DNA of 64,000 bases from an uncultured Treponemataceae bacterium (GCA_964485395.1 CAZAJF010000006.1:41195-105194); one strand, 5' to 3'; positions 4,131 to 63,499 are shown, counted from the stretch's first letter. The notes: a model not told the origin generated them from the letters alone. Numbers and translations are program-made.

Positions 4131-6494
4131 CTACCCCAAAAGCAGGAATCCGTCTTTATCGGCGACTAACCGAGTCATGCATTTACTGCATTTATATCTA
4201 CCGGGCTTCTTAATCGTATAAAGGCTGTCGCAAATTGGACAGTATCTTTTAATTGGAAAACTACATGGACTTGGGTCAAAAAATAGTAACCAGGCAGCAG
4301 CATCTTTTAATGTGTCCGCAATGGGTAGAAAATATTTAAAACCAAGTAGCTGTATCACTTGAAGTTTTTTTTCGGCAACTGCATAAAGGATACAATTCCC
4401 GCCCTTCGGAAGGAGTTTCTTGAGTAATCTTACGAAAGCCCCAATGGATCTACTGGCAATATCACCGGCATGCCCAAGGCCTATGGCAATTCGTCTATAA
4501 CCGGCATCCAGAGCGGCGTCCATTAAAATGTCGAACTCATTTACTATATAAGCATCGTCGAAAGCCATAGTGATCTCTACTGATAATCCATCAGGAACTC
4601 CAGGCAGGAGGGATAATCTAAGGTAATCGCCATACTTGATTTTTGTGTTGATGCCAGGCAGGATACCCTCGTTCCCCGTCGGCATGGCTTCTCCTGTGCT
4701 GGCATCCGGTATAGCTGGATTGCCTTTAGTCTCACTGGATGAAATGAGGGCACGAGATTCTCCCGTGATGGTTTTGACGCGTATCATGGCCTGTTCAAAG
4801 CTTTTATTTTCCCCCGAAACAATTTTCTCGAAACCTGCAAGCCAATTCCTGGATGCCATGCTCGGGTGCCCCAGCTTGAGGACACGATCATTGCTTTGGT
4901 CCTCAAGCTGTGGTTTTTGAATCGGCTGCTCGGTTTTTATCTTTTTAGAAAGGCTTATATACCGTTCCAAATCTGTTTTGCTTATCACAGCTCCCCCTGC
5001 TTTTAGCAGAGCGAAACTTTCCAGGTAATTTACACAATGATCATATTTCTGCGGACTAGCACAGGAATGAGCCCTTTCAAGCAAAGCACTCGCAAGGGGT
5101 TTGCTGATGGGGCGAGATTGTATTGTCCCATTTGCATCGATGGGGATATCTTCGTGGGAACGGATTAACACATTGACTTCAGCTCCTGCATCGATAAGGA
5201 TCATGGCGCTTTCAGGATGAGCTTTATAAGAAGTGATTTGACAGAGTGCAGTTTCACCAAACTCGTTAGTCTTTTTAACATCGGCACCTGCTTCAACCAG
5301 TAATCTGACGATGTCCGGTCGTCCTTTTTCAACGGCGTGCATGAGAACGGATTCGCCTGACATGCTCTCTTCGGCATTGACATCCGCCCCGGCTTCTACC
5401 AAGGCCCGAGCTATTGCAGTGTTCTTATTGTCTTTAACTGCATAAATCAAGGCTGTCTCTCCACGCCTGTTCTTTTCATCTATGTTTGCACCGGCCTGTG
5501 TTAAGACTTTGATAACACCGGGATCGGAATTCTGACGTGCGGCATACATGAGTACGGTGTCGCCAAAGGTGGTGGCGGCATTTACATTGGCGCCAGCACC
5601 ACAGAGGAGTTCGACCGTCCCGTGGGGACTCCAGCTTGCAGCTGAAATGAGCGCTGTATTTCCCCCTGAGTCTTTATCATTGACATTCGCCCCTGCAGCA
5701 AGCAGGATGGCCACTACCGCCCGACTCTCCTTGTTGCCTGCCGCCGACATCAAAGCCGTACGGCCGCATCCATTCGTTCCATTCACGTTGATGCCGGATT
5801 CTAGTAATCGCGTAATCGTCGCAGGGCTGTTCCAGAAGGCGGCAAGCCTGAGCATCTCCTGGCTGAAGGGACCATCCGGGCCCGGCGAGGCTCCTGCCTC
5901 AAGCAGAATGGCCGTAAGCTCGGGATGCCCGTTTTCCATCGCGGCATAGTGCAAGGCATCGCGGCCGTCAGGGGCTTGCGCCGTAATGCCAGCCCCCGAA
6001 GCGATAAGCTCAGCAACAATTTCGGGATTATCGTTGTAACAGGCTGCCAGCATCAGCGGAGTCATTCCATAACGATCTTTTGCTTCGATGTTGGAGCCGG
6101 AACTGCAAAGCAGTGCAATGACCCCGGGAGAATTCGTATATTTCGATGCCAGCATCAAGGCCGTCTGCCTGTCATGATTAACAATGCCGAGCTCTGCGCC
6201 ATTCGAAATTAGTGCGGAAACGACGGCTTCATCATTCCAGCAGGACGCGTACATCAATGCCGTCCAGCCGATCGCATCCTTGTCATCGACATGTATGCCC
6301 GCAAGGATAAGCCTTGAAACAACTTCAGGGTCTTTGCAAAATCGCGCGGCCAGAATGAGGCTGGTCTTCCCGTCGCCGGTGCTTTCGTGAATATTTATTT
6401 CTTCCGTCATGGCGGCCAGGATTGCCTTTGCATCGCCTGTCATGCACAGGGCAAGAAAGCTTACCGGTTTCGAAGAATTGTCCTTGGTTTCCAT
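4131..6494 (-). CDS. Ankyrin-repeat protein with C-terminal STAS-like domain and zinc ribbon
   Basis: 787 aa. About 12 ANK repeats (G.TALM.AA....PE.V..L..AGA..N) are followed by a STAS-like block (GNCILYAVAEKKLQVIQLLGFKYFLPIADTLKDAAAWL). The protein ends in CPICDS..x..CSKC. The 3' third is visibly lower in GC. Confidence 0.75.
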   Translation of the reverse strand: METKDNSSKPVSFLALCMTGDAKAILAAMTEEINIHESTGDGKTSLILAARFCKDPEVVSRLILAGIHVDDKDAIGWTALMYASCWNDEAVVSALISNGAELGIVNHDRQTALMLASKYTNSPGVIALLCSSGSNIEAKDRYGMTPLMLAACYNDNPEIVAELIASGAGITAQAPDGRDALHYAAMENGHPELTAILLEAGASPGPDGPFSQEMLRLAAFWNSPATITRLLESGINVNGTNGCGRTALMSAAGNKESRAVVAILLAAGANVNDKDSGGNTALISAASWSPHGTVELLCGAGANVNAATTFGDTVLMYAARQNSDPGVIKVLTQAGANIDEKNRRGETALIYAVKDNKNTAIARALVEAGADVNAEESMSGESVLMHAVEKGRPDIVRLLVEAGADVKKTNEFGETALCQITSYKAHPESAMILIDAGAEVNVLIRSHEDIPIDANGTIQSRPISKPLASALLERAHSCASPQKYDHCVNYLESFALLKAGGAVISKTDLERYISLSKKIKTEQPIQKPQLEDQSNDRVLKLGHPSMASRNWLAGFEKIVSGENKSFEQAMIRVKTITGESRALISSSETKGNPAIPDASTGEAMPTGNEGILPGINTKIKYGDYLRLSLLPGVPDGLSVEITMAFDDAYIVNEFDILMDAALDAGYRRIAIGLGHAGDIASRSIGAFVRLLKKLLPKGGNCILYAVAEKKLQVIQLLGFKYFLPIADTLKDAAAWLLFFDPSPCSFPIKRYCPICDSLYTIKKPGRYKCSKCMTRLVADKDGFLLLG

Positions 6495-49067: not shown

Positions 49068-49312
49068 CAACGAAGTATTACCTCAACGTTTCTATATTAT
49101 CTTGCGGAGAGAGATCGTGTCAACGCAGAAGTATTTAGCGATTATTTTAGCTAGTAGTATTGCTGTATAAAAATGTGCACTAAGGTAGGATAATGACTTC
49201 TCAAGGCAGGATTCAAGTCATGCTAAGCTTTGCAACAGTATACAATTAGATAATTAAAATTTGCCAATCTTTACATGGCATGGTTATTGCATTATAAGTG
49301 CCATGAAATATT

Positions 49313-55544: not shown

Positions 55545-56216
55545 TCAGCGGGCCGGAAGAATCGCCATTATGGCAAAAAAGTGAAGAATGGTTCCTGCCG
55601 CCACGAATACATGCCACACGGGATGCGTCCAGACTGATTTCTTGATGAGGTAGAAAAGCGACCCCGCGGTGTAGGCCACGCCGCCGGCGATGATAAACCA
55701 GAGTGTCGTTGGGCTGGCCGCCGCTACGAGCGGTTTCCAGGCGAATACTACGACCCAGCCCATCAGCACATATGCAATCGTGGAAACGAACCGGGCTTTA
55801 CCCAATAAAAACGGCTTCAAGGCGATTCCGATAATCGCGGCGCCCCAAACGACGCCAAAAATCCACCAGCCTACCGTGGGCCTTAAAATCGTCAGGGAAA
55901 ATGGAGTATAGGTCCCGGCTATCAGGATATATATAGAAGAATGGTCAAAAATGCGCAGTATCCGCTTGGCTTTCGTAAACGGAATCGCATGATACAGCGT
56001 AGACATCGTGTAGAGCATCAGCGATGACACGCCGAAGACCGTAAAGGAAACGATGTGCCACACGTCTCCCCGTAAAACCGAGGAAATTACCAGGACGACA
56101 AGCCCGGCTATGGATAAAAGCACGCCGAGCCCATGTGTGATTGAATTGGCTATTTCTTGGCCGACAGGGTACGGTTTAAGTATAGCTCCGGTGTCGGTTA
56201 GCGATTTTGCATGCAT
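55545..56216 (-). CDS. Hemolysin III / PAQR-family membrane protein
   Basis: Seven TM segments with motifs NSITHG, LYHA and FDHSSIYILIAGTYTPF. Confidence 0.85.
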   Translation of the reverse strand: MHAKSLTDTGAILKPYPVGQEIANSITHGLGVLLSIAGLVVLVISSVLRGDVWHIVSFTVFGVSSLMLYTMSTLYHAIPFTKAKRILRIFDHSSIYILIAGTYTPFSLTILRPTVGWWIFGVVWGAAIIGIALKPFLLGKARFVSTIAYVLMGWVVVFAWKPLVAAASPTTLWFIIAGGVAYTAGSLFYLIKKSVWTHPVWHVFVAAGTILHFFAIMAILPAR

Positions 56217-56342
56217 ATGCGGGACCTCTTTCGCTTACATTGATTAGCTGTCATCTATTAAAACCTTCTCGGTTTTGCACGGTGACATTGCATGAACTCA
56301 AGTTTTGTTCGTAAGTTAGACAAGCTGATAATTGCTTGGTTG

Positions 56343-56378
56343 CAATAAAAACAGGGTGCCGGCCCTGGCACCCTGTTT
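56343..56378 (-). terminator. Rho-independent terminator (minus strand)
   Basis: On the minus strand AAACAGGGTGCC-AGGGCC-GGCACCCTGTTT is followed by TTATT. Confidence 0.65.
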
Positions 56379-56465
56379 CCATGATTTTAGATTATTTCTA
56401 TATAACAATATTTTCTACTCTGTCTTTTTAACTGATTTTACCTGCAACTTTTTTTACCAACCTTG
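56343..56465 (-). ncRNA. Candidate sigma-54-dependent small RNA (~120 nt)
   Basis: It is bounded by a consensus sigma-54 promoter (56474..56492, minus) and a minus-strand intrinsic terminator (stem 56349..56378, then TTTTTATT). It is AU-rich with no convincing ORF. Confidence 0.45.
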
Positions 56466-56473
56466 CTTCTTAT

Positions 56474-56492
56474 AAAGCAAGAAACGTGCCAA
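56474..56492 (-). promoter_or_regulatory. Sigma-54 (-24/-12) promoter
   Basis: The minus strand reads TTGGCACGTTTCTTGCTTT. This is an exact match to TGGCAC-N5-TTGC with correct GG/GC spacing. Confidence 0.6.
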
Positions 56493-56581
56493 AATGGTGG
56501 AATTTCTATTTATTTTAATTCGTTTCTATATAAAGAATTATTTTCTGCAATTAGTTTAAAAAACAAGCATTAAAAACCAAA

Positions 56582-56701
56582 GGGTGTGCACAATTCTATT
56601 ATATTTTTTGAAAAGACAAGACATATAGCAAGTATATCCTTATAATATATATACTTATATATTAGCTATATATGTACACAGCAGTGCATTAATGCACACC
56701 C
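56582..56701. promoter_or_regulatory. Candidate enhancer (UAS) sites for the NtrC-type activator
   Basis: GGGTGTGCA at 56582..56590 and its inverted copy TGCACACCC at 56693..56701, plus the perfect palindrome GTGCATTAATGCAC at 56684..56697. They lie ~95-210 bp upstream of the sigma-54 promoter. Confidence 0.35.
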
Positions 56702-56730: not shown

Positions 56731-58146
56731 TTATTCCTCATCATCGTTTTTTAATCTGCGATTCAACGCTGTTCGTGAGATTCCCAAGAAGCCTGCCGCA
56801 ATTCCTTGATTCCCCCCTGCCCTTTTCAATGCTTCCTGGATTAATTCGTCGCTGAGTTCTTTTAAAGTAGGTAAGACGGTGCGAGAAGAAAAAAACGAGG
56901 TTGTGCCTGCGCTTGAGCGTGCGGGACTATGGCTGTTCTCATAGGCCCCATTCTTAAAGATTCGCGCTTTAAAAGACTCCAAGGGCAGGATGCGTCCTTC
57001 GGCGCGCCCTATGGCGTCATAGATCATCGACTCCAGTTCGCGGATGTTTCCGGGAAAATCCCACGTTAATAAAAGATCATACAACTCTTCGGGTATGGAC
57101 GGTTTTTTCTTTCCGAATTTTCCGGCGGCCTTTTCGGCAAAGTATTCCACGAGCAGGGGGATATCGTCGGGACGTTCGCGAAGCGGCGGAATCCTGATAT
57201 GATGCGTCTCGAGGCGGTAAAACAGATCGAGGCGAAACCTGCCGGAATCGGCGTCAGCCTGAAGGTTTCGGTGCGTCGCGGCCACAATTAGGGCATCCGA
57301 TGGGCGGGTCAGGTCGGAGCCCAGCGGGTAGTAGAGTTTCTGCTCAATCAGGCGCAGCAGCTTTACCTGGCTTTGCGGGGAGAGATCCCCGATTTCGTCC
57401 AGGAACAGCGTTCCTCCCGCAGCCTTCTCGATGAGGCCGGACCTGTCGGTTTCCGCCCCGGTATACGAGCCTTTTTTATGGCCGAACAGCGTGTCGCTGA
57501 ACATGGCATCGTCCAGGCCGGCGATATTCACGGTTACGAGAGGACCCTTCCGCCCCGAGGCGGCATGCACCGCGGCTGCGAACAATTCCTTACCGGTGCC
57601 GGATTCTCCGGTGATGAGGATAGGCTTTTCCGAGCAGGCGATCGCGTCGATATACCTGAATATGGCGATCATGCCGCGATTTCCGGTAATTACCCGGCTG
57701 TAGTAATCGGGCAGGGGACGCTGCTCGCCCAGGAGGCTGTCCTTCAAGGCTTTGTTATCATCCAATAACCTTCCGATCTCCTCCGCGTGCCGTATGCTGG
57801 CTATGAGCCGCGTTGCCTCCGCCGACTTGGGAACATAGTCGAAGGCTCCCGCCTTCATGCAGCGGACGACGATATCCAGATCGTCGACGGCCGTGGCGAC
57901 GATGACGGGCACCTCCGGCCTGCGGCTGTTCATTTCGTCCAGCACCGCGTACCCGTCCACGTCGGGCATGAGCAGATCGAGTATCATGACGATGACCTTG
58001 CGCGACTCCAGAACCTTCCAGACCTGCGAGGCATGTTCGCATAATATTATATCTTCATAACCATTGAAGCGGAGAAGGCGTTCCAGCCGCTTGAGCACCC
58101 CCGTATCGTCGTCGAGAACCAGGATCGCGCCGTTTCGTTCGTTCAT
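56731..58146 (-). CDS. Sigma-54-dependent response regulator (NtrC/Fis family)
   Basis: The receiver is ILVLDDD...DLLMPDVDG. The AAA+ domain has GESGTGKE, a GAFTGA-like GSYTGA, and the ESELFGH equivalent SDTLFGH. The C-terminal Fis HTH is GNQGIAAGFLGISRTAL. Confidence 0.9.
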   Translation of the reverse strand: MNERNGAILVLDDDTGVLKRLERLLRFNGYEDIILCEHASQVWKVLESRKVIVMILDLLMPDVDGYAVLDEMNSRRPEVPVIVATAVDDLDIVVRCMKAGAFDYVPKSAEATRLIASIRHAEEIGRLLDDNKALKDSLLGEQRPLPDYYSRVITGNRGMIAIFRYIDAIACSEKPILITGESGTGKELFAAAVHAASGRKGPLVTVNIAGLDDAMFSDTLFGHKKGSYTGAETDRSGLIEKAAGGTLFLDEIGDLSPQSQVKLLRLIEQKLYYPLGSDLTRPSDALIVAATHRNLQADADSGRFRLDLFYRLETHHIRIPPLRERPDDIPLLVEYFAEKAAGKFGKKKPSIPEELYDLLLTWDFPGNIRELESMIYDAIGRAEGRILPLESFKARIFKNGAYENSHSPARSSAGTTSFFSSRTVLPTLKELSDELIQEALKRAGGNQGIAAGFLGISRTALNRRLKNDDEE

Positions 58147-58147
58147 C

Positions 58148-61100
58148 TCACTTTTCCCCTTCCGATTCCCCGGCTGCCGATTCCCTGTATATGGGGAACG
58201 CGACGGTTACGACCGTGCCGAGGCCCGGCTTGGACTCGATATCTATTTTTCCGCCAAACTCGCGGACGATCCCGGCGACCACGGGAAGGCCGAGGCCAGT
58301 GCCGCCTTTTTCGCGCTTCGTGGTAAAAAACGGATTGAAAATGCAGGCTAGGACTTCCGGGGTCATGCCTATGCCTTGGTCGATAATCGTAATTCCAACC
58401 CGGCCTTCCCGCGAAGCTGCGTCGTTCCCAAGCTCCACGAAGGTGCTTACGGAAACCGGCGCCTCGATGGACGGCAGGCATTGCAATGCGTTTTCCAGGA
58501 TATTCACCACGATTTGCGTAAGTTTCAGCTTGTCGCCCAGGATAAATGGCGGGTTTTGGGCATACGTAGCGGTGAAATTTTTTGAACTTACCGCGATGGA
58601 ATGCTTGAGCAGCCTGACGGCGTACTGCACGGATTGGTTGACGTCGATGGGTCCGAGCCCTTCCTGCCTCGGACCGCGCGCGTATTCCTTGAGATCCTCC
58701 ACGATTTTGCGGATATGCTGGGCACCCATGTAGAGATCGTTGAACATCTCGGGTATTTCATTGCGGAGGTCCGGCACGGAAAATCCGCGAATGCTGAAAT
58801 CGCCCTCGGCAGCGTAGAGTTTTTCAAGGGCGGGTGCAAGCTCCGACCATATTTCCTTCAAGATGGGAACATTGCGCAGGGCCGAGTTGTTGGGAGTGTT
58901 GATTTCATGGGCCACTCCCGCGGTAAGCCATCCCAGCGTCTTGAGCTTGTCGGTTTCGGCCATCTTGTCGCGCTGTTCCCGCTCCCGCCGGACGCTGCGC
59001 CCAAGATCCGCATGCGTCTTTATCTTTGAAAGCAGCTCGACGGCGCCGACGGGCCTGACGATGTAATCGTCGGCTCCCGACTTGAAAACTTCCTCGATTT
59101 CCTCCGGGCGGCCCGCATCAATGAGGATGATGACCGGCAGGGTTTCCCTCGGATAATATTTTCTTAATATTTTGGTGAATTCAAAGCCGCTCATTTCCGG
59201 CATCAAGGAATCCACGAGAACGACATCGCAAAACAATCCGGTTTTCAACGCCTGAATGGCCTGCCACGCGGAGATCTTGGCATACACATTCCAGCCGGCC
59301 GTTTCTATCCTTCTCTTTACGGTAAAGAGGGAAACAGGTTCGTCATCGACGATGAGCACCGAGCAAATGGAGGAGAAACCCCTTTGCTCCCGCTGATCGG
59401 GATGGTCGATTTTTTTTATCGGACTTCCCGCGCTCGACAGCCTCATCCGTTGCGGCAAGCTGGTTTCCGCAGTGGTTTCGGGAGCATCCAGACGCGCTTC
59501 CTGACTGGGGAAATGCTTGGAAAGCGGAAGCTCGAACTGATAGGAAGTGCCTTCGGAATTCCTGTTGTACGCAAATTTTCCACCGATCAAGCTGGCTAGC
59601 CGCGCCGTCAGGGCAAGGTCCATATCTTCTTCGCTATTGGGGCTTTCTTCATTATCCGGCCAGACTATCCCGGGATTGGCCGGACCTCCGCGACTGCCGG
59701 AGAGATCCTTGCCGTTGTCGCTGATTCGCAAAAAAACCATCGAGTCGATCACATACGCCTTGATGCCGATCTCCGTAACGAGCTCCGTTATCGCGGAACG
59801 GTACAAGGTATTGTATATCAGCTGCTGGATCGTTTGAATGTCGTTGACGAGCTCGATGGAGGGAACCGATTGCAGGAAAATAATTTTCCCCGAGGAAGTA
59901 AAATACCTGACCAGTTGAATCGCCGAATTTACGGATGCGGAAAGGCTGAAAGGCTCCGCCGTCAGGTTCCTCGATCCATCCTTGAGGTTGACGTATGAAA
60001 CTATATTGGAGACTATATTCAGTAAATTGACCGCCTCATTTTTGGCAAGGGCGCTGTCCGGGCCGAATCCGGCTCTCTGCGCTCCGCCATCACGGTCTTC
60101 AAGCAGCGAAACGATATGGTTGAGCGGAGAGCTGAGCAGTGCGGCGACAGACGTTATAAAACCTTGCTTTTCCCTCAGAAGCTTCTCTTCCTTCTCGCGC
60201 TGCGCGGAGAATACCAGGTCGCGAATCCTGCCCCATTTCAGGTAGCCGACTATCGATGCGACGGAAATCATGGCCATCGAAAAAAGCATGAGGCCAAACA
60301 AGATCGCGGATCTTAATCCGAAGGGGAATATGGAAGGAAAAAACGTGGCTGCGAACAGGAATAGAGATACGGCGGCATTGCCGCCATAGAGCATAAGATA
60401 GAATATTTCGTAAGGTTTCTCCGAAAAGGAATCTCTGAAACCCCGCATGAGCAGGAGTACGGATGTCGTCAAGACCAGAAAGTAGAGCGCCGCCTCGGAA
60501 AAAGAATATGCCTTTACCACCACTGTGCTGCAAAGGATGAGCGAAAACGAAAGCAGCGCGAAAAGGTACACGAGCTGCACCGAATAAATTTTATTCCAGA
60601 TCGCCGAGAGGAAAAAAATGACCAGCGGATAAAGGCAGGAAACCAGGTAAACCGTAAATAAAATTTCCGACGTGCCAAGCCCGAGAAAGGAAAGGCTTCC
60701 GGAAAACAGCTCGACGGCGCAGAAGATCATCGAGTAGGCCAGGAATAAAATAAAAACCAACGGGTTCCCGAGCTTCTGCATAGTAAGAAAAACAAACGCC
60801 ATGATCACCGAGAACAGCAGTAGAGAATACGCAATGCCGCGCAAGACCGCCCGTCCGATGGTTACCCTCGCGTGCGCTGGAATTTTCTGCAGTTGCATGT
60901 CGGCTATCCAGGTCTTGACGGGGCTCAGCTTGATGAACACGAGCGCGGAACCTTGGATTGAGCCAGAGGGGAGCACATAGTCCGAACGGGAGATTCCGCT
61001 GAAAACCCGTAAGTGCTCCAGAGACGCGTCTTTATATGAAATCCTGGAATTGTATTCGTCCACCACTATCAATTCCGCAAGGTCGGGAGTATCCGCATGA

Positions 61101-61465
61101 ATCGACAGAACGGAACCTTGCCAAGCGCGGTAATCCTGAAAGGGGATCATGAGCCAAAGCGGATTTTCGGCGTAGATTTCCGGCAGCACGCCGGTTTTCA
61201 TGAAATATTCGTCTTTTGAGTATTTCAGCGCAAAAAAGAATTCCAGGCACGAAAGAGAATTCATCGCTGAATAAGGAAGACGCACTCCGCCTTCGTAATG
61301 GATATAGGCGAATGCCGCCACGGATAGCGCTTCCGCTTTTGCGGACAGTACGGGAGGCACCCGGTTCAGGACGGGCAGATCGGACGCGACGGCCTTGGCC
61401 GGCGCCGCGTACATGAAGAGCGGGAATAAAAGCAATGCGAAGGATACGGCGAGTTTTCTGATCAT
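58148..61465 (-). CDS. Large membrane hybrid sensor histidine kinase
   Basis: An N-terminal signal and extracytoplasmic region are followed by ~7 TM segments and a degenerate kinase-like region. The receiver is VLIVDDEPVSL...DSLMPEMSG, the H-box is AGVAHEINTPNN, and the HATPase G-box is GTGLGLPVVAGIV. ATG at 61465 overlaps the upstream stop (ATGA). Confidence 0.8.
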   Translation of the reverse strand: MIRKLAVSFALLLFPLFMYAAPAKAVASDLPVLNRVPPVLSAKAEALSVAAFAYIHYEGGVRLPYSAMNSLSCLEFFFALKYSKDEYFMKTGVLPEIYAENPLWLMIPFQDYRAWQGSVLSIHADTPDLAELIVVDEYNSRISYKDASLEHLRVFSGISRSDYVLPSGSIQGSALVFIKLSPVKTWIADMQLQKIPAHARVTIGRAVLRGIAYSLLLFSVIMAFVFLTMQKLGNPLVFILFLAYSMIFCAVELFSGSLSFLGLGTSEILFTVYLVSCLYPLVIFFLSAIWNKIYSVQLVYLFALLSFSLILCSTVVVKAYSFSEAALYFLVLTTSVLLLMRGFRDSFSEKPYEIFYLMLYGGNAAVSLFLFAATFFPSIFPFGLRSAILFGLMLFSMAMISVASIVGYLKWGRIRDLVFSAQREKEEKLLREKQGFITSVAALLSSPLNHIVSLLEDRDGGAQRAGFGPDSALAKNEAVNLLNIVSNIVSYVNLKDGSRNLTAEPFSLSASVNSAIQLVRYFTSSGKIIFLQSVPSIELVNDIQTIQQLIYNTLYRSAITELVTEIGIKAYVIDSMVFLRISDNGKDLSGSRGGPANPGIVWPDNEESPNSEEDMDLALTARLASLIGGKFAYNRNSEGTSYQFELPLSKHFPSQEARLDAPETTAETSLPQRMRLSSAGSPIKKIDHPDQREQRGFSSICSVLIVDDEPVSLFTVKRRIETAGWNVYAKISAWQAIQALKTGLFCDVVLVDSLMPEMSGFEFTKILRKYYPRETLPVIILIDAGRPEEIEEVFKSGADDYIVRPVGAVELLSKIKTHADLGRSVRREREQRDKMAETDKLKTLGWLTAGVAHEINTPNNSALRNVPILKEIWSELAPALEKLYAAEGDFSIRGFSVPDLRNEIPEMFNDLYMGAQHIRKIVEDLKEYARGPRQEGLGPIDVNQSVQYAVRLLKHSIAVSSKNFTATYAQNPPFILGDKLKLTQIVVNILENALQCLPSIEAPVSVSTFVELGNDAASREGRVGITIIDQGIGMTPEVLACIFNPFFTTKREKGGTGLGLPVVAGIVREFGGKIDIESKPGLGTVVTVAFPIYRESAAGESEGEK

Positions 61466-62205
61466 CCGCGAAGCTCGAACCCCGGGCGGACCCGTCCGGA
61501 AACGAGCGATGCCCTGATTCGCCCCAAATCGGCCAAGCCGTCGGATGTTTTCCATCCGGCATCCAGCTCGAGGATAAACGGCCTTCTTCCGACGTTTTCC
61601 GGATAGTGCGCATCGGACCCTGTTATTACCGTATAACCTTTGGCGGAGCCTTCGACCGGGGCGCGAACCAGCTCCACGGCGGCATACGGGCCTTCAGGAA
61701 GGAATCCCAACTGGGAAATCACCCCGAACATGGGTCTGTCTATGTGGGCGGGTATCACGAGCGCCCCGGTTTCGGAGGCGATGCGGCAGACTTCGTCATA
61801 ACCCATCGTCAAGGAAGATCCAAGGTAATGATCCGGCATTTCCAGGATGTTCTCGTCTTTGTCCACGACGACCTGGTCACCCAGGACCACGGCGTCGTAG
61901 GGCAGCGGAAGCAGGTTGCCCTCGAGGACCCGGCCGAAGCCGAGCGCGGCGTCGGGATCCGCGAAAATGCACAATACGTGGACTTCCTCGGCCGTCGTCA
62001 TTTCCATGCCGAACAGGGGAACGATCCCTTCCGCGCGCGCGCAGTCCAGCCATGCGGGAGCGTTGCGCGCCGAATTGTGATCGGTAAGGGCGACGAGCTC
62101 GAGACCTTTCGCGCGAGCCGCCCTGGCCAGCACCCTGGGAGACATCTCGAGGCTGCCGCACGGGGACAGGCAGGAATGATTATGGAAATCCGAAAGGACG
62201 GTCAT
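61462..62205 (-). CDS. PHP-domain metal-dependent phosphoesterase
   Basis: Motifs DFHNHSCLSPCG, ALTDHNS and IPAHIDR. Confidence 0.8.
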   Translation of the reverse strand: MTVLSDFHNHSCLSPCGSLEMSPRVLARAARAKGLELVALTDHNSARNAPAWLDCARAEGIVPLFGMEMTTAEEVHVLCIFADPDAALGFGRVLEGNLLPLPYDAVVLGDQVVVDKDENILEMPDHYLGSSLTMGYDEVCRIASETGALVIPAHIDRPMFGVISQLGFLPEGPYAAVELVRAPVEGSAKGYTVITGSDAHYPENVGRRPFILELDAGWKTSDGLADLGRIRASLVSGRVRPGFELRG

Positions 62206-62218
62206 TCCGGGATAGGGC

Positions 62219-62557
62219 TCAACTGCTCGGGCGCAGCGTGGAATAAAGCATTCCGGAAACTTCGAACTGCGACTTTGAGGTGCGGAAAATCGCGACCTTC
62301 TCGCTTTTCGCGGCTGCCGTCATGTCCTCGGGGACCGGCCGGTCATTGCAGACGACGACGGCGCAAATCCCCACGAGCGTTGCGACGGCTACGGTATTCT
62401 TGTGGGCCTGGATGGTAATGAGCGCAAAATCGTTTCCGGCCCTTGCCATGACGTCAGAGAGCAGGTCGGACGTGTAGCCGCCGGCGACGGGCCTATCGTC
62501 GAAATCGCCTTGGATTGCCTCGAAGCCGAATCGTGATCCGAACTCGCTAATATTCAT
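62219..62557 (-). CDS. DRTGG-domain protein
   Basis: 112 aa with GYTSDLLSDVMA...ALITIQAHKNTVAVA. This matches the DRTGG small-domain family as I recall it. Confidence 0.6.
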   Translation of the reverse strand: MNISEFGSRFGFEAIQGDFDDRPVAGGYTSDLLSDVMARAGNDFALITIQAHKNTVAVATLVGICAVVVCNDRPVPEDMTAAAKSEKVAIFRTSKSQFEVSGMLYSTLRPSS

Positions 62558-62572
62558 GGAATGCTCCTTGTT

Positions 62573-63499
62573 TCAGATATCGTAGTTTATCTTGACGATT
62601 ACGGTCGTACCCGCGGGCGAGGACTTGATGTCGAAGTCGTTGGCCGAGCGCTTGGCGTTGGGAAGGCCGAGCCCGGCGCCGAATCCGATGGACCTGATCC
62701 ACTCGTTGGCCGTGGAGAATCCCTCGGTAAGGGCAGCCTCCAGGTCGGGGATGCCCGGCCCGGTATCGCGCGCGATAATAGTTATATTTCCTTTTCCTAC
62801 GGAAAATTCCATGACGCCGCCGAGGGAATGTATGACCTGATTCAATTCAAGCTCGTAGCTCGCGACCGCGGCGCGCCGAATCACGGCGGGGTCTATGGAA
62901 AACCCCTTGAGCGCCTTCTTGAGCTCGCCGGAGGCCTTGCCCGCGTTCTCGAAATCGAATTGCCGCGTCGGAAAATACAGGGTTATCACATCAGCCGCGG
63001 CAGGGCTCGTTCCCGAGGTGGCCCGCACGGCCGCCATGTCGGCCTCGAGCCGTTCCACCTCCCGGTTCATTTCCACCAGCAGCACCCGGATTATGTCCGC
63101 CGCCGTGATTATTCCCACGAGCAGCCCGTCCTTGCCGAGGACGGGGAACCTCCGGAACGTATAGCGGTTCAGGTACGAGATGGCGAAGCTGAGCGGCATT
63201 TCTTCCTCGAGCACGATGATGGAAGTGCTCATATGCCGCCCCGCCGCCTCGTTGATGAGCCCTGCGTCCAGCGCCTGGAGGATGTCGCCGATGGTGACGA
63301 TGCCCACCAGGCGGCCGTTCTCCGCGATGGGCACGCCGGTAATCCCATGGTCGCGCATCAAGACCTGGACTTCCCTCATTCCGGAATCGGGAGTGGCGGT
63401 TATGATCGCGTGGGTCATCACGTCGCGGACCTTGAGGCGGTAAATAAGTTCAAGGACGACTTTTGAACCGCCATCGGTATCGATTGGAATGGAAGTCAT
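62573..63499 (-). CDS. CBS-pair protein fused to a GHKL ATPase (anti-sigma/serine-kinase-like) domain
   Basis: Two CBS motifs (VRDVMTHAIITATPD..GITGVPI; RFPVLGKDGLLVGIITAADI) are followed by a C-terminal DTGPGI...GFGAGLGLPNAKR. Confidence 0.75.
   Translation of the reverse strand: MTSIPIDTDGGSKVVLELIYRLKVRDVMTHAIITATPDSGMREVQVLMRDHGITGVPIAENGRLVGIVTIGDILQALDAGLINEAAGRHMSTSIIVLEEEMPLSFAISYLNRYTFRRFPVLGKDGLLVGIITAADIIRVLLVEMNREVERLEADMAAVRATSGTSPAAADVITLYFPTRQFDFENAGKASGELKKALKGFSIDPAVIRRAAVASYELELNQVIHSLGGVMEFSVGKGNITIIARDTGPGIPDLEAALTEGFSTANEWIRSIGFGAGLGLPNAKRSANDFDIKSSPAGTTVIVKINYDI

Follow-up and report, generated by a model that had tools for sequence, protein, structure and literature searches.

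A predicted sigma-54-dependent small RNA gene downstream of an NtrC-type regulator in uncultured Treponema-related spirochaetes

Described circuits and the locus in the window

Several two-component systems are known in which an NtrC-class regulator activates the sigma-54 promoter of an adjacent small RNA (sRNA) gene that is its main output, e.g. GlrK/GlrR (QseE/QseF) with GlmY in Enterobacteriaceae and LuxO with Qrr in Vibrio. In these systems the sRNA genes glmY and qrr1 are placed ahead of the regulator genes or run divergently from them; GlmY is a decoy for RapZ, and Qrr acts by Hfq-dependent pairing. For Nla19-Pxr of Myxococcus and for sRNAs of Desulfovibrio vulgaris, the sRNA gene lies directly downstream of the gene for a sigma-54 activator or response regulator. 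Here we describe a locus of this general kind in 64,000 nucleotides (nt) of DNA from an uncultured Treponemataceae bacterium (GCA_964485395.1, CAZAJF010000006.1:41195-105194; "the window" denotes this whole stretch). On its minus strand, a gap of 514 nt separates the stop codon of an NtrC-type regulator gene (56731) from the start of the hemolysin-III gene trhA (56216), and we consider it likely that this gap holds an independent sigma-54-dependent sRNA gene under the control of the adjacent regulator.

Two circuits of Pseudomonas invite a closer comparison. There, crcZ always lies downstream of cbrB, is co-transcribed with it and carries several A-rich motifs that sequester Hfq/Crc (PMC5113210). 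In P. aeruginosa, nrsZ follows ntrC in the intergenic gap, possesses an RpoN promoter and is made of repeated modules, one to six according to species; these form stem-loops with ACAGGCAG in the loop and are cut to units of 40 nt, for which pairing with the rhlA leader has been proposed (PMC4253122). The locus in the window resembles CbrA/CbrB-CrcZ in the order of kinase, NtrC-type regulator and sRNA directly downstream, all in the same orientation, and its predicted RNA resembles CrcZ in having its own, presumably regulator-activated, promoter (that of CrcZ is of the sigma-54 type; PMC4253122), several unpaired A-rich repeats and possible co-transcription. It differs from CrcZ (~400 nt, AAnAAnAA, Hfq/Crc) in its length of 120-200 nt, its motif CA(G/U)GUAAAAA, a lineage in which Hfq was not found, and its phylum. 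The likeness to NtrB/NtrC-NrsZ lies in the position right after the regulator gene and in a variable number of repeats (1-6 in NrsZ, 2-6 here), but the repeats here are single-stranded and A-rich, and the regulator falls below the NtrC equivalog cut-off. GlmY and Qrr share with it the regulator class and an adjacent sigma-54 sRNA, whereas here the sRNA lies downstream and has no Rfam match; Nla19-Pxr and the D. vulgaris sRNAs share placement and orientation but belong to other phyla and bear no relation to it in sequence or fold. The RNA is a new, uncatalogued family in uncultured Treponema-related spirochaetes, in a layout already established in Proteobacteria; its value is that of a new family and motif, not of a new principle, and what sets it apart is the phylum, the repeat motif and a lineage without Hfq. 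To our knowledge, next to nothing is known of regulatory RNAs in spirochaetes outside Borrelia and Leptospira, and a literature search on sigma-54 sRNAs in spirochaetes returned nothing relevant.

The window's genome (G000) comprises 4.35 Mb in 78 contigs and is estimated to be 88.6% complete. The gap has a G+C content of 26-34%, compared with ~55% for the genome. An earlier reading of the window, made from the sequence alone (the sequence-only reading), had described an AT-rich gap between genes for a sigma-54 activator and hemolysin-III; the gap was confirmed, and Pfam and NCBIfam bore out the identities of both genes. The close relatives of the regulator all come from metagenome-assembled Spirochaetota (labelled Spirochaetia, Spirochaetaceae or "uncultured Treponemataceae"). 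Comparisons were made with 42 species-representative genomes of the family and with 401 genomes of the order, ~360 of them outside the family. Because a DNA search in 40 relatives gave an alignable copy only in the same-genus genome, we used protein-anchored loci and covariance models; the loci comprise 15 orthologues of the regulator (63-87% identity), 13 of which extend past the end of the gene.

Promoter, candidate activator sites and structure of the predicted RNA

The sigma-54 promoter, TGGCACGTTTCTTGC, lies at 56477..56491 on the minus strand in the context TTGGCACGTTTCTTGCTTT and reads TGGCAC-GTTTC-TTGC, with GG at -24 and GC at -12. Including the following base it is TGGCACGTTTCTTGCT (56491-56476), which fits TGGCAC-N5-TTGCW with GG and GC at fixed spacing. 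The exact TGGCAC-N5-TTGC reported by the sequence-only reading is present at 56491-56477 and is the sole match in the window, against 0.08 expected from dinucleotide shuffles, 8 of 100 of which gave one match; the chance expectation of about 0.1 given in that reading agrees with this value. The same reading had raised in advance the objection of a genome without rpoN, which does not apply, as the window's genome carries this gene (Sigma54_DBD, 181 bits; G000:C4:86136-86609). From the usual spacing to the -12 element, a transcript is predicted to start near 56466-56465. The promoter recurs in relatives: among 24 distinct copies of the RNA, 22 are immediately preceded by TGG(C/T)A-N6-TGC (of the remaining two, one has TGGCCT-N5-TTGC and one is lost at a contig end), and a -24/-12 element of the form TGGCA(C/T)-N5-nTGC is found 212-284 nt past the regulator stop in all 13 orthologous loci with downstream DNA.

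Just past the regulator stop, ~207 nt upstream of the -24 box, lies the first candidate activator site, the palindrome TGTGCATTAATGCACT at 56683..56698 (consensus TGTGCA-N4-TGCACA); the stretch GGGGTGTGCATTAATGCAC at 56702-56684 includes the palindrome GTGCATTAATGCAC at 56698-56685. A candidate partial second site, TGCACACCC (56582..56590), is an inverted copy of GGGTGTGCA and lies ~95 nt upstream of the -24 box; TGCACACC is kept there in the same-genus genome. The upstream inverted repeats and palindrome seen from the sequence alone are part of a conserved TGTGCA-N4-TGCACA about 200 nt upstream of the -24 box: this 16-nt palindrome is found 197-238 nt upstream of the box in most family members, and in several relatives another complete one is present at about -100 to -121. 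With up to one mismatch allowed, the palindrome is found once in the 4.35-Mb genome, at 56683-56698, and is absent within 260 nt of all 23 other strong sigma-54-like sites in the genome, which suggests that the RNA gene would be the regulator's principal direct target. The window also holds a second sigma-54-like element, TGGCATGGTTATTGCA at 49276-49291 on the plus strand, ~22 nt ahead of an ATG and with no TGTGCA-N4-TGCACA-type palindrome upstream.

Covariance models and folding place the predicted sRNA, ~122 nt long, at 56345..56466 on the minus strand. It ends in an intrinsic terminator (56344..56378, minus strand), identified by terminator search and covariation, which consists of a 13-bp stem, the hexaloop AGGGCC and then UUUUUAUU. 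The hairpin itself, AAACAGGGTGCC-loop-GGCACCCTGTTT at 56378-56349, has 13 pairs, seven of them G-C, and is followed by TTTTTATT; it begins 99 nt after the -12 element, in line with the 12-bp GC-rich hairpin that the sequence-only reading had described about 100 nt downstream of the promoter, and forms in every minimum-energy fold. The interval from the regulator stop to this hairpin contains no further terminator-like site, so that transcripts reading on from the kinase-regulator operon may also stop here. Pairing in the terminator helix reaches 99.6% over 24 distinct sequences, 8 of its 10 pairs vary in a compensatory way, and the hexaloop in relatives is often (A/U)GGGCC.

The fold predicted for the RNA of the window (z-score -3.9) has, upstream of the terminator hairpin, a 4-bp 5' hairpin with GGUUGGUAAAAAAA in its loop and an open A-rich body of ~60 nt. 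Most genera have a 5' G(C/U)GGUUGGU block and a 5-bp helix, GUCCC/GGGAC, that encloses a single-stranded A-rich repeat region; this helix is 85% paired, all five of its pairs show double changes, and its variants include GGCCC/GGGCC and AUCCC/GGGAU. For the structure as a whole, with the alignment fitted to the model, the share of paired cells is 94.9%, compared with 82% in shuffles and 42-50% with slid partners, compensatory changes occur in 13 of 15 pairs, and the observed covariation values were reached by none of 500 column shuffles. The covariation in relatives that the sequence-only reading had proposed as a check is thus found in both helices.

The most conserved element of the RNA is a repeat, C-A-(G/U)-G-U-A-A-A-(A/c)-A-A-G-U, present in 2-6 copies per RNA, often 13-16 nt apart and in numbers that vary among species. 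Its core is GUAA in 87 of 87 occurrences, preceded by G in 46 and by U in 28; each repeat holds a run of 5-7 A after A(G/U)GU and only two ARN triplets. The window RNA carries two copies of this family motif on the minus strand, UUGGUAAAAAAA at 56449..56460 and CAGGUAAAA at 56436..56444, followed by two degenerate copies, AGUUAAAAA and AGUAGAAAA, and is the only place in the genome with a cluster of RGGTAAAA.

Conservation, linkage to the regulator and rival explanations

A covariance model (R1) built from nine relatives, with the window and its genus excluded, recovers the window copy at 56344-56480 (57 bits, E 1e-6), and model R2 scores this copy at 87 bits. R1 found the RNA in 23 of the 42 family genomes, exactly one copy in each; R2, run over the 401 genomes of the order, detected it in 24 genomes of the family and in a single sister-family genome (one of the ~360 others). 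The RNA is ~120-200 nt long in its various carriers, and the bacterial family is one of uncultured environmental organisms. The 13 orthologous loci share the same succession of promoter, A-rich stretch of 120-145 nt and strong terminator. The same-genus genome aligns at 79% over a stretch that opens shortly before the promoter and closes shortly after the terminator, and the rest of the gap aligns poorly. The sister-family genome (G090) has the family's layout, i.e. regulator, GGGTGTGAATAATTGCACA, TTGGCATGTCCCTTGC, four AGGUAAAAA or AUGUAAAAA repeats and terminator. In two genomes of genus g8 (regulator 58% identity) the RNA was missed by the models and seen by eye: these copies are longer and diverged and keep the palindrome, the promoter, a 5' GGUGGUUGG block, the repeats and the terminator. 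Rfam 15 contains models for GlmY, Qrr, CrcZ and CsrB/RsmZ. No Rfam family matched the gap at permissive E-values or the RNA of the 13 orthologous loci at gathering thresholds; the best match in the gap, traJ_5, reached 20.8 bits against a threshold of 50 and covered the terminator only.

The presence of the RNA follows that of the regulator. Of the 42 family genomes, 25 encode an orthologue of the regulator at 62-87% identity and two more encode one at 58%; paralogues of the regulator (at most 51% identity) are clearly apart from the 15 orthologous loci. The RNA is found in 24 of the 25 genomes whose orthologue reaches 62% identity, the sole exception being one in which a contig breaks off at a fragment of the regulator, and in none of the 15 family genomes without an orthologue. 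In 19 genomes it shares a contig with the regulator, 240-322 nt downstream of it, and a kinase open reading frame (ORF) of 970-1000 amino acids stands immediately upstream of the regulator in all orthologous loci. The conserved unit, the covariance models and this linkage support what the sequence-only reading had mainly proposed, a sigma-54 sRNA as the output of the adjacent kinase and regulator; the sRNA would be the main, perhaps the only, direct output of the upstream two-component system. In the proposed circuit, the membrane-bound hybrid kinase would sense a signal, probably at the envelope, and phosphorylate the NtrC-type regulator, which would bind TGTGCA-N4-TGCACA behind its own stop codon together with the second site closer to the promoter and remodel the sigma-54 RNA polymerase held at TGGCAC-N5-TTGC. 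Transcription would then run from ~56466 to the hairpin and U-run at ~56345, giving an RNA of ~122 nt.

A number of points weigh against this proposal. It draws on sequence and comparison (promoter, palindrome, terminator, covarying conserved RNA, linkage to the regulator, and rpoN), from which we infer binding of the regulator to the palindrome, the start site and transcription itself. The organism of the window was seen only in DNA runs, from a rock metagenome, and in no RNA run. A sediment metatranscriptome contains one 210-nt contig, from a strain related to locus L019, that spans the RNA and extends ~18 nt beyond the predicted start on the upstream side and 55 nt beyond the terminator, its depth (~5) being as low as that of the flanking genes (2-4); this contig could represent DNA carry-over or read-through, and its ends reflect the assembly, not the ends of an RNA. 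Groundwater and wastewater runs gave only conserved AAA+ fragments of other organisms. Fitting the covariation alignment to the model favours the structure, and the window's own genus, without the internal helix and with only two good copies of the motif, is an atypical member of the family. Finally, searches with the motif, its complement and the trhA leader, and with protein profiles, found no RNA-binding partner or target.

These points have to be set beside three other explanations of the same region. If the sigma-54 promoter drove trhA, and the hairpin were a regulated attenuator in a long 5' leader, one could account for the co-oriented trhA gene downstream in most, though not all, loci and for the continuation of the metatranscriptome contig beyond the terminator. 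The sequence-only reading had put forward such an attenuator as its alternative. Between the terminator and trhA, 20 of 24 loci (L013-L027, L094-L116) have GCAAC-N17-GTC with invariant spacing, which in the window is GCAAC-N17-GTCTAA at 56316..56343 on the minus strand. Since this element resembles promoters of extracytoplasmic function (ECF) sigma factors (GGAAC-N16/17-GTC type), trhA probably has its own promoter. Moreover, the RNA is retained where trhA is not downstream: the gene that follows is convergent in four lineages (L014 and G090, lipoprotein-like; G008, alanine racemase; G019) and is a different gene in L107. The hairpin is strong, no upstream complementary segment that could compete with it and no antiterminator fold were found, and the distribution of the RNA follows the regulator, not trhA. 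An attenuator is therefore disfavoured, and we regard it as very improbable.

The kinase-regulator operon could alternatively have this region as its 3' untranslated tail, perhaps in processed form, in which case the -24/-12 motif would be silent and the terminator would merely end the operon. Such a tail would suit the lack of a further terminator-like site ahead of the hairpin, the metatranscriptome contig that starts upstream of the predicted start, and the co-transcription of cbrB and crcZ, with processing, documented in Pseudomonas putida (PMC5113210). If the motif had no function, however, one would not expect GG-N10-GC and its near-consensus flanks to persist in 22 of 24 diverged copies amid some 200 nt that cannot be aligned; the persistence of a palindrome at constant spacing would be equally unexpected, and read-through fits an sRNA gene as well and does not oppose it. 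This makes a mere operon tail very improbable. A very small protein, encoded in place of a functional RNA, is suggested by some copies in which an AGG like a Shine-Dalgarno sequence is followed by AUG and 2-8 codons. These mini-frames vary among species in length, frame and presence, the ATG of the window is ACG in the same-genus genome, and conservation tracks base pairs and the nucleotide motif, not codons. No conserved ORF was found; this explanation was rejected, and we give it a minimal chance.

Possible modes of action

For the predicted sRNA, titration of an RNA-binding factor, of the CsrB or CrcZ kind but not via Hfq, is the mode of action that we rate most likely, if tentatively; we favour it because the motif is repeated, single-stranded and purine-rich, and because species differ in the number of copies but keep the sequence. 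Second comes base-pairing in the manner of NrsZ, by way of either the repeated motif or the 5' block, a possibility to be taken seriously. Of the factors that such an RNA might titrate, Hfq gave no match in the window's genome and none above the cut-off in the 42 family genomes, and a CrcZ-like Hfq sponge was excluded on this ground. CsrA is present in the window's genome (G000:C4:116567-116725); a CsrA sponge was rejected, as the repeat shows GUA in place of the GGA typical of CsrA sites and many copies are without any GG. Each of the 42 family genomes encodes 1-4 small RRM proteins, and 41 of them encode a PUR-like DUF3276 protein, the candidates in the window's genome being G000:C2:99387-99599 (RRM) and G000:C4:123108-123320 (PUR-like). 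The profile of RRM_1 and DUF3276 proteins does not track the presence of the RNA across the family genomes, and these could be general RNA-binding proteins of this lineage.

A more specific and more speculative version, which we think rather unlikely, would make the RNA a novel type of protein sponge in Hfq-less spirochaetes, whose 2-6 single-stranded CA(G/U)GUAAAAA repeats, with a spacing of about 14-16 nt, would titrate a single-strand RNA-binding regulator, with the RRM and PUR-like proteins as candidates. If this were so, a seven-transmembrane-type envelope sensor would control translation globally via one RNA made by sigma-54, and the phylum would have a new recognition motif and a Csr/Crc-like circuit; we know of no such circuit in this phylum. 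The locus offers a compact and complete candidate circuit (kinase, activator, genome-unique site, promoter, RNA and terminator) that is testable outside its host, and the repeated motif could serve as bait for an RNA-binding partner in a lineage without Hfq.

Other candidate modes of action were tried and discarded. The motif as a mimic of a ribosome-binding site was dropped, such a site being present in only a handful of unrelated genes, and a scan for the complement of the motif (TTTTTACC/A) near gene starts gave noise. Pairing of the RNA with the trhA leader gave duplex energies no better than those of shuffled RNA (z -2.9 to +2.2, mostly near 0). The 5' GGUUGGU is complementary to GCCAAC in the I-A-N codons of trhA; no compensatory changes between species were found among the locus sequences compared, and the match is taken as coincidence.

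Regulator, kinase and neighbouring genes

The regulator gene (56731..58146, minus strand) encodes an NtrC-type response regulator and sigma-54 enhancer-binding protein with REC, AAA+ and HTH_8 domains (Pfam: Sigma54_activat 1.1e-53, Response_reg 1e-23, HTH_8 5.5e-10). Its Walker motifs are intact, Walker A being GESGTGKE, and its sigma-54 contact loop (residues ~224-229) is GSYTGA, a variant of GAFTGA that retains the aromatic residue and the Thr; the orthologue in G090 has GAFTGA. Against the NtrC equivalog of NCBIfam the protein scores 316 bits (cut-off 559), and it is far under the cut-offs of the GlrR and LuxO equivalogs.

The hybrid sensor histidine kinase (58148..61555, minus strand; 1135 amino acids), recognised by Pfam, NCBIfam and its translation, consists of a signal or transmembrane segment, a periplasmic domain of ~200 amino acids, a block of several transmembrane segments, and then REC (733-845), HisKA-like (877-960) and HATPase_c (1007-1122) domains. 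This build is unusual in that the receiver domain precedes the HisKA-like and HATPase domains rather than following them. The first 730 residues have no Pfam family match, including a stretch of ~200 amino acids after the transmembrane block. Directly upstream of the kinase, three co-oriented genes at 61462-63499 (minus strand) encode a protein with a CBS pair and a GHKL ATPase domain, a small protein like DRTGG/HPr-kinase-N, and a PHP-domain protein.

On the other side of the gap, trhA (55545..56216, minus strand) encodes a hemolysin-III or PAQR family membrane homeostasis protein (NCBIfam NF011669, 247 bits with a cut-off of 80; Pfam HlyIII, 4e-40). The element GCAAC-N17-GTCnA(A/T) occurs 14 times in the window's genome, and another well-placed site lies 64 nt ahead of the gene for a membrane protein of 112 amino acids (G000:C7, minus strand, ~51657). 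The trhA leader of several relatives (L018 at ~4810-4850, L019, L023, L016 and L025) contains a hairpin with compensatory changes in its stem (CCGCTC...GAGCGG, GATCGCC...GGCGATC), just ahead of the ribosome-binding site GAAAGGT; the window's genus is without most of this leader. Downstream of trhA in L016, at 5842-6167 on the plus strand, there are group II intron domains (Rfam RF02001, 95.5 bits; RF01998, 50.3 bits). Elsewhere in the window's genome, outside the window, contig C3 carries on its minus strand at ~58889 a tandem array of at least three copies of a 29-nt unit, CACCTTGTTTGTAAACATGAGGGACAGG, beside a masked stretch.

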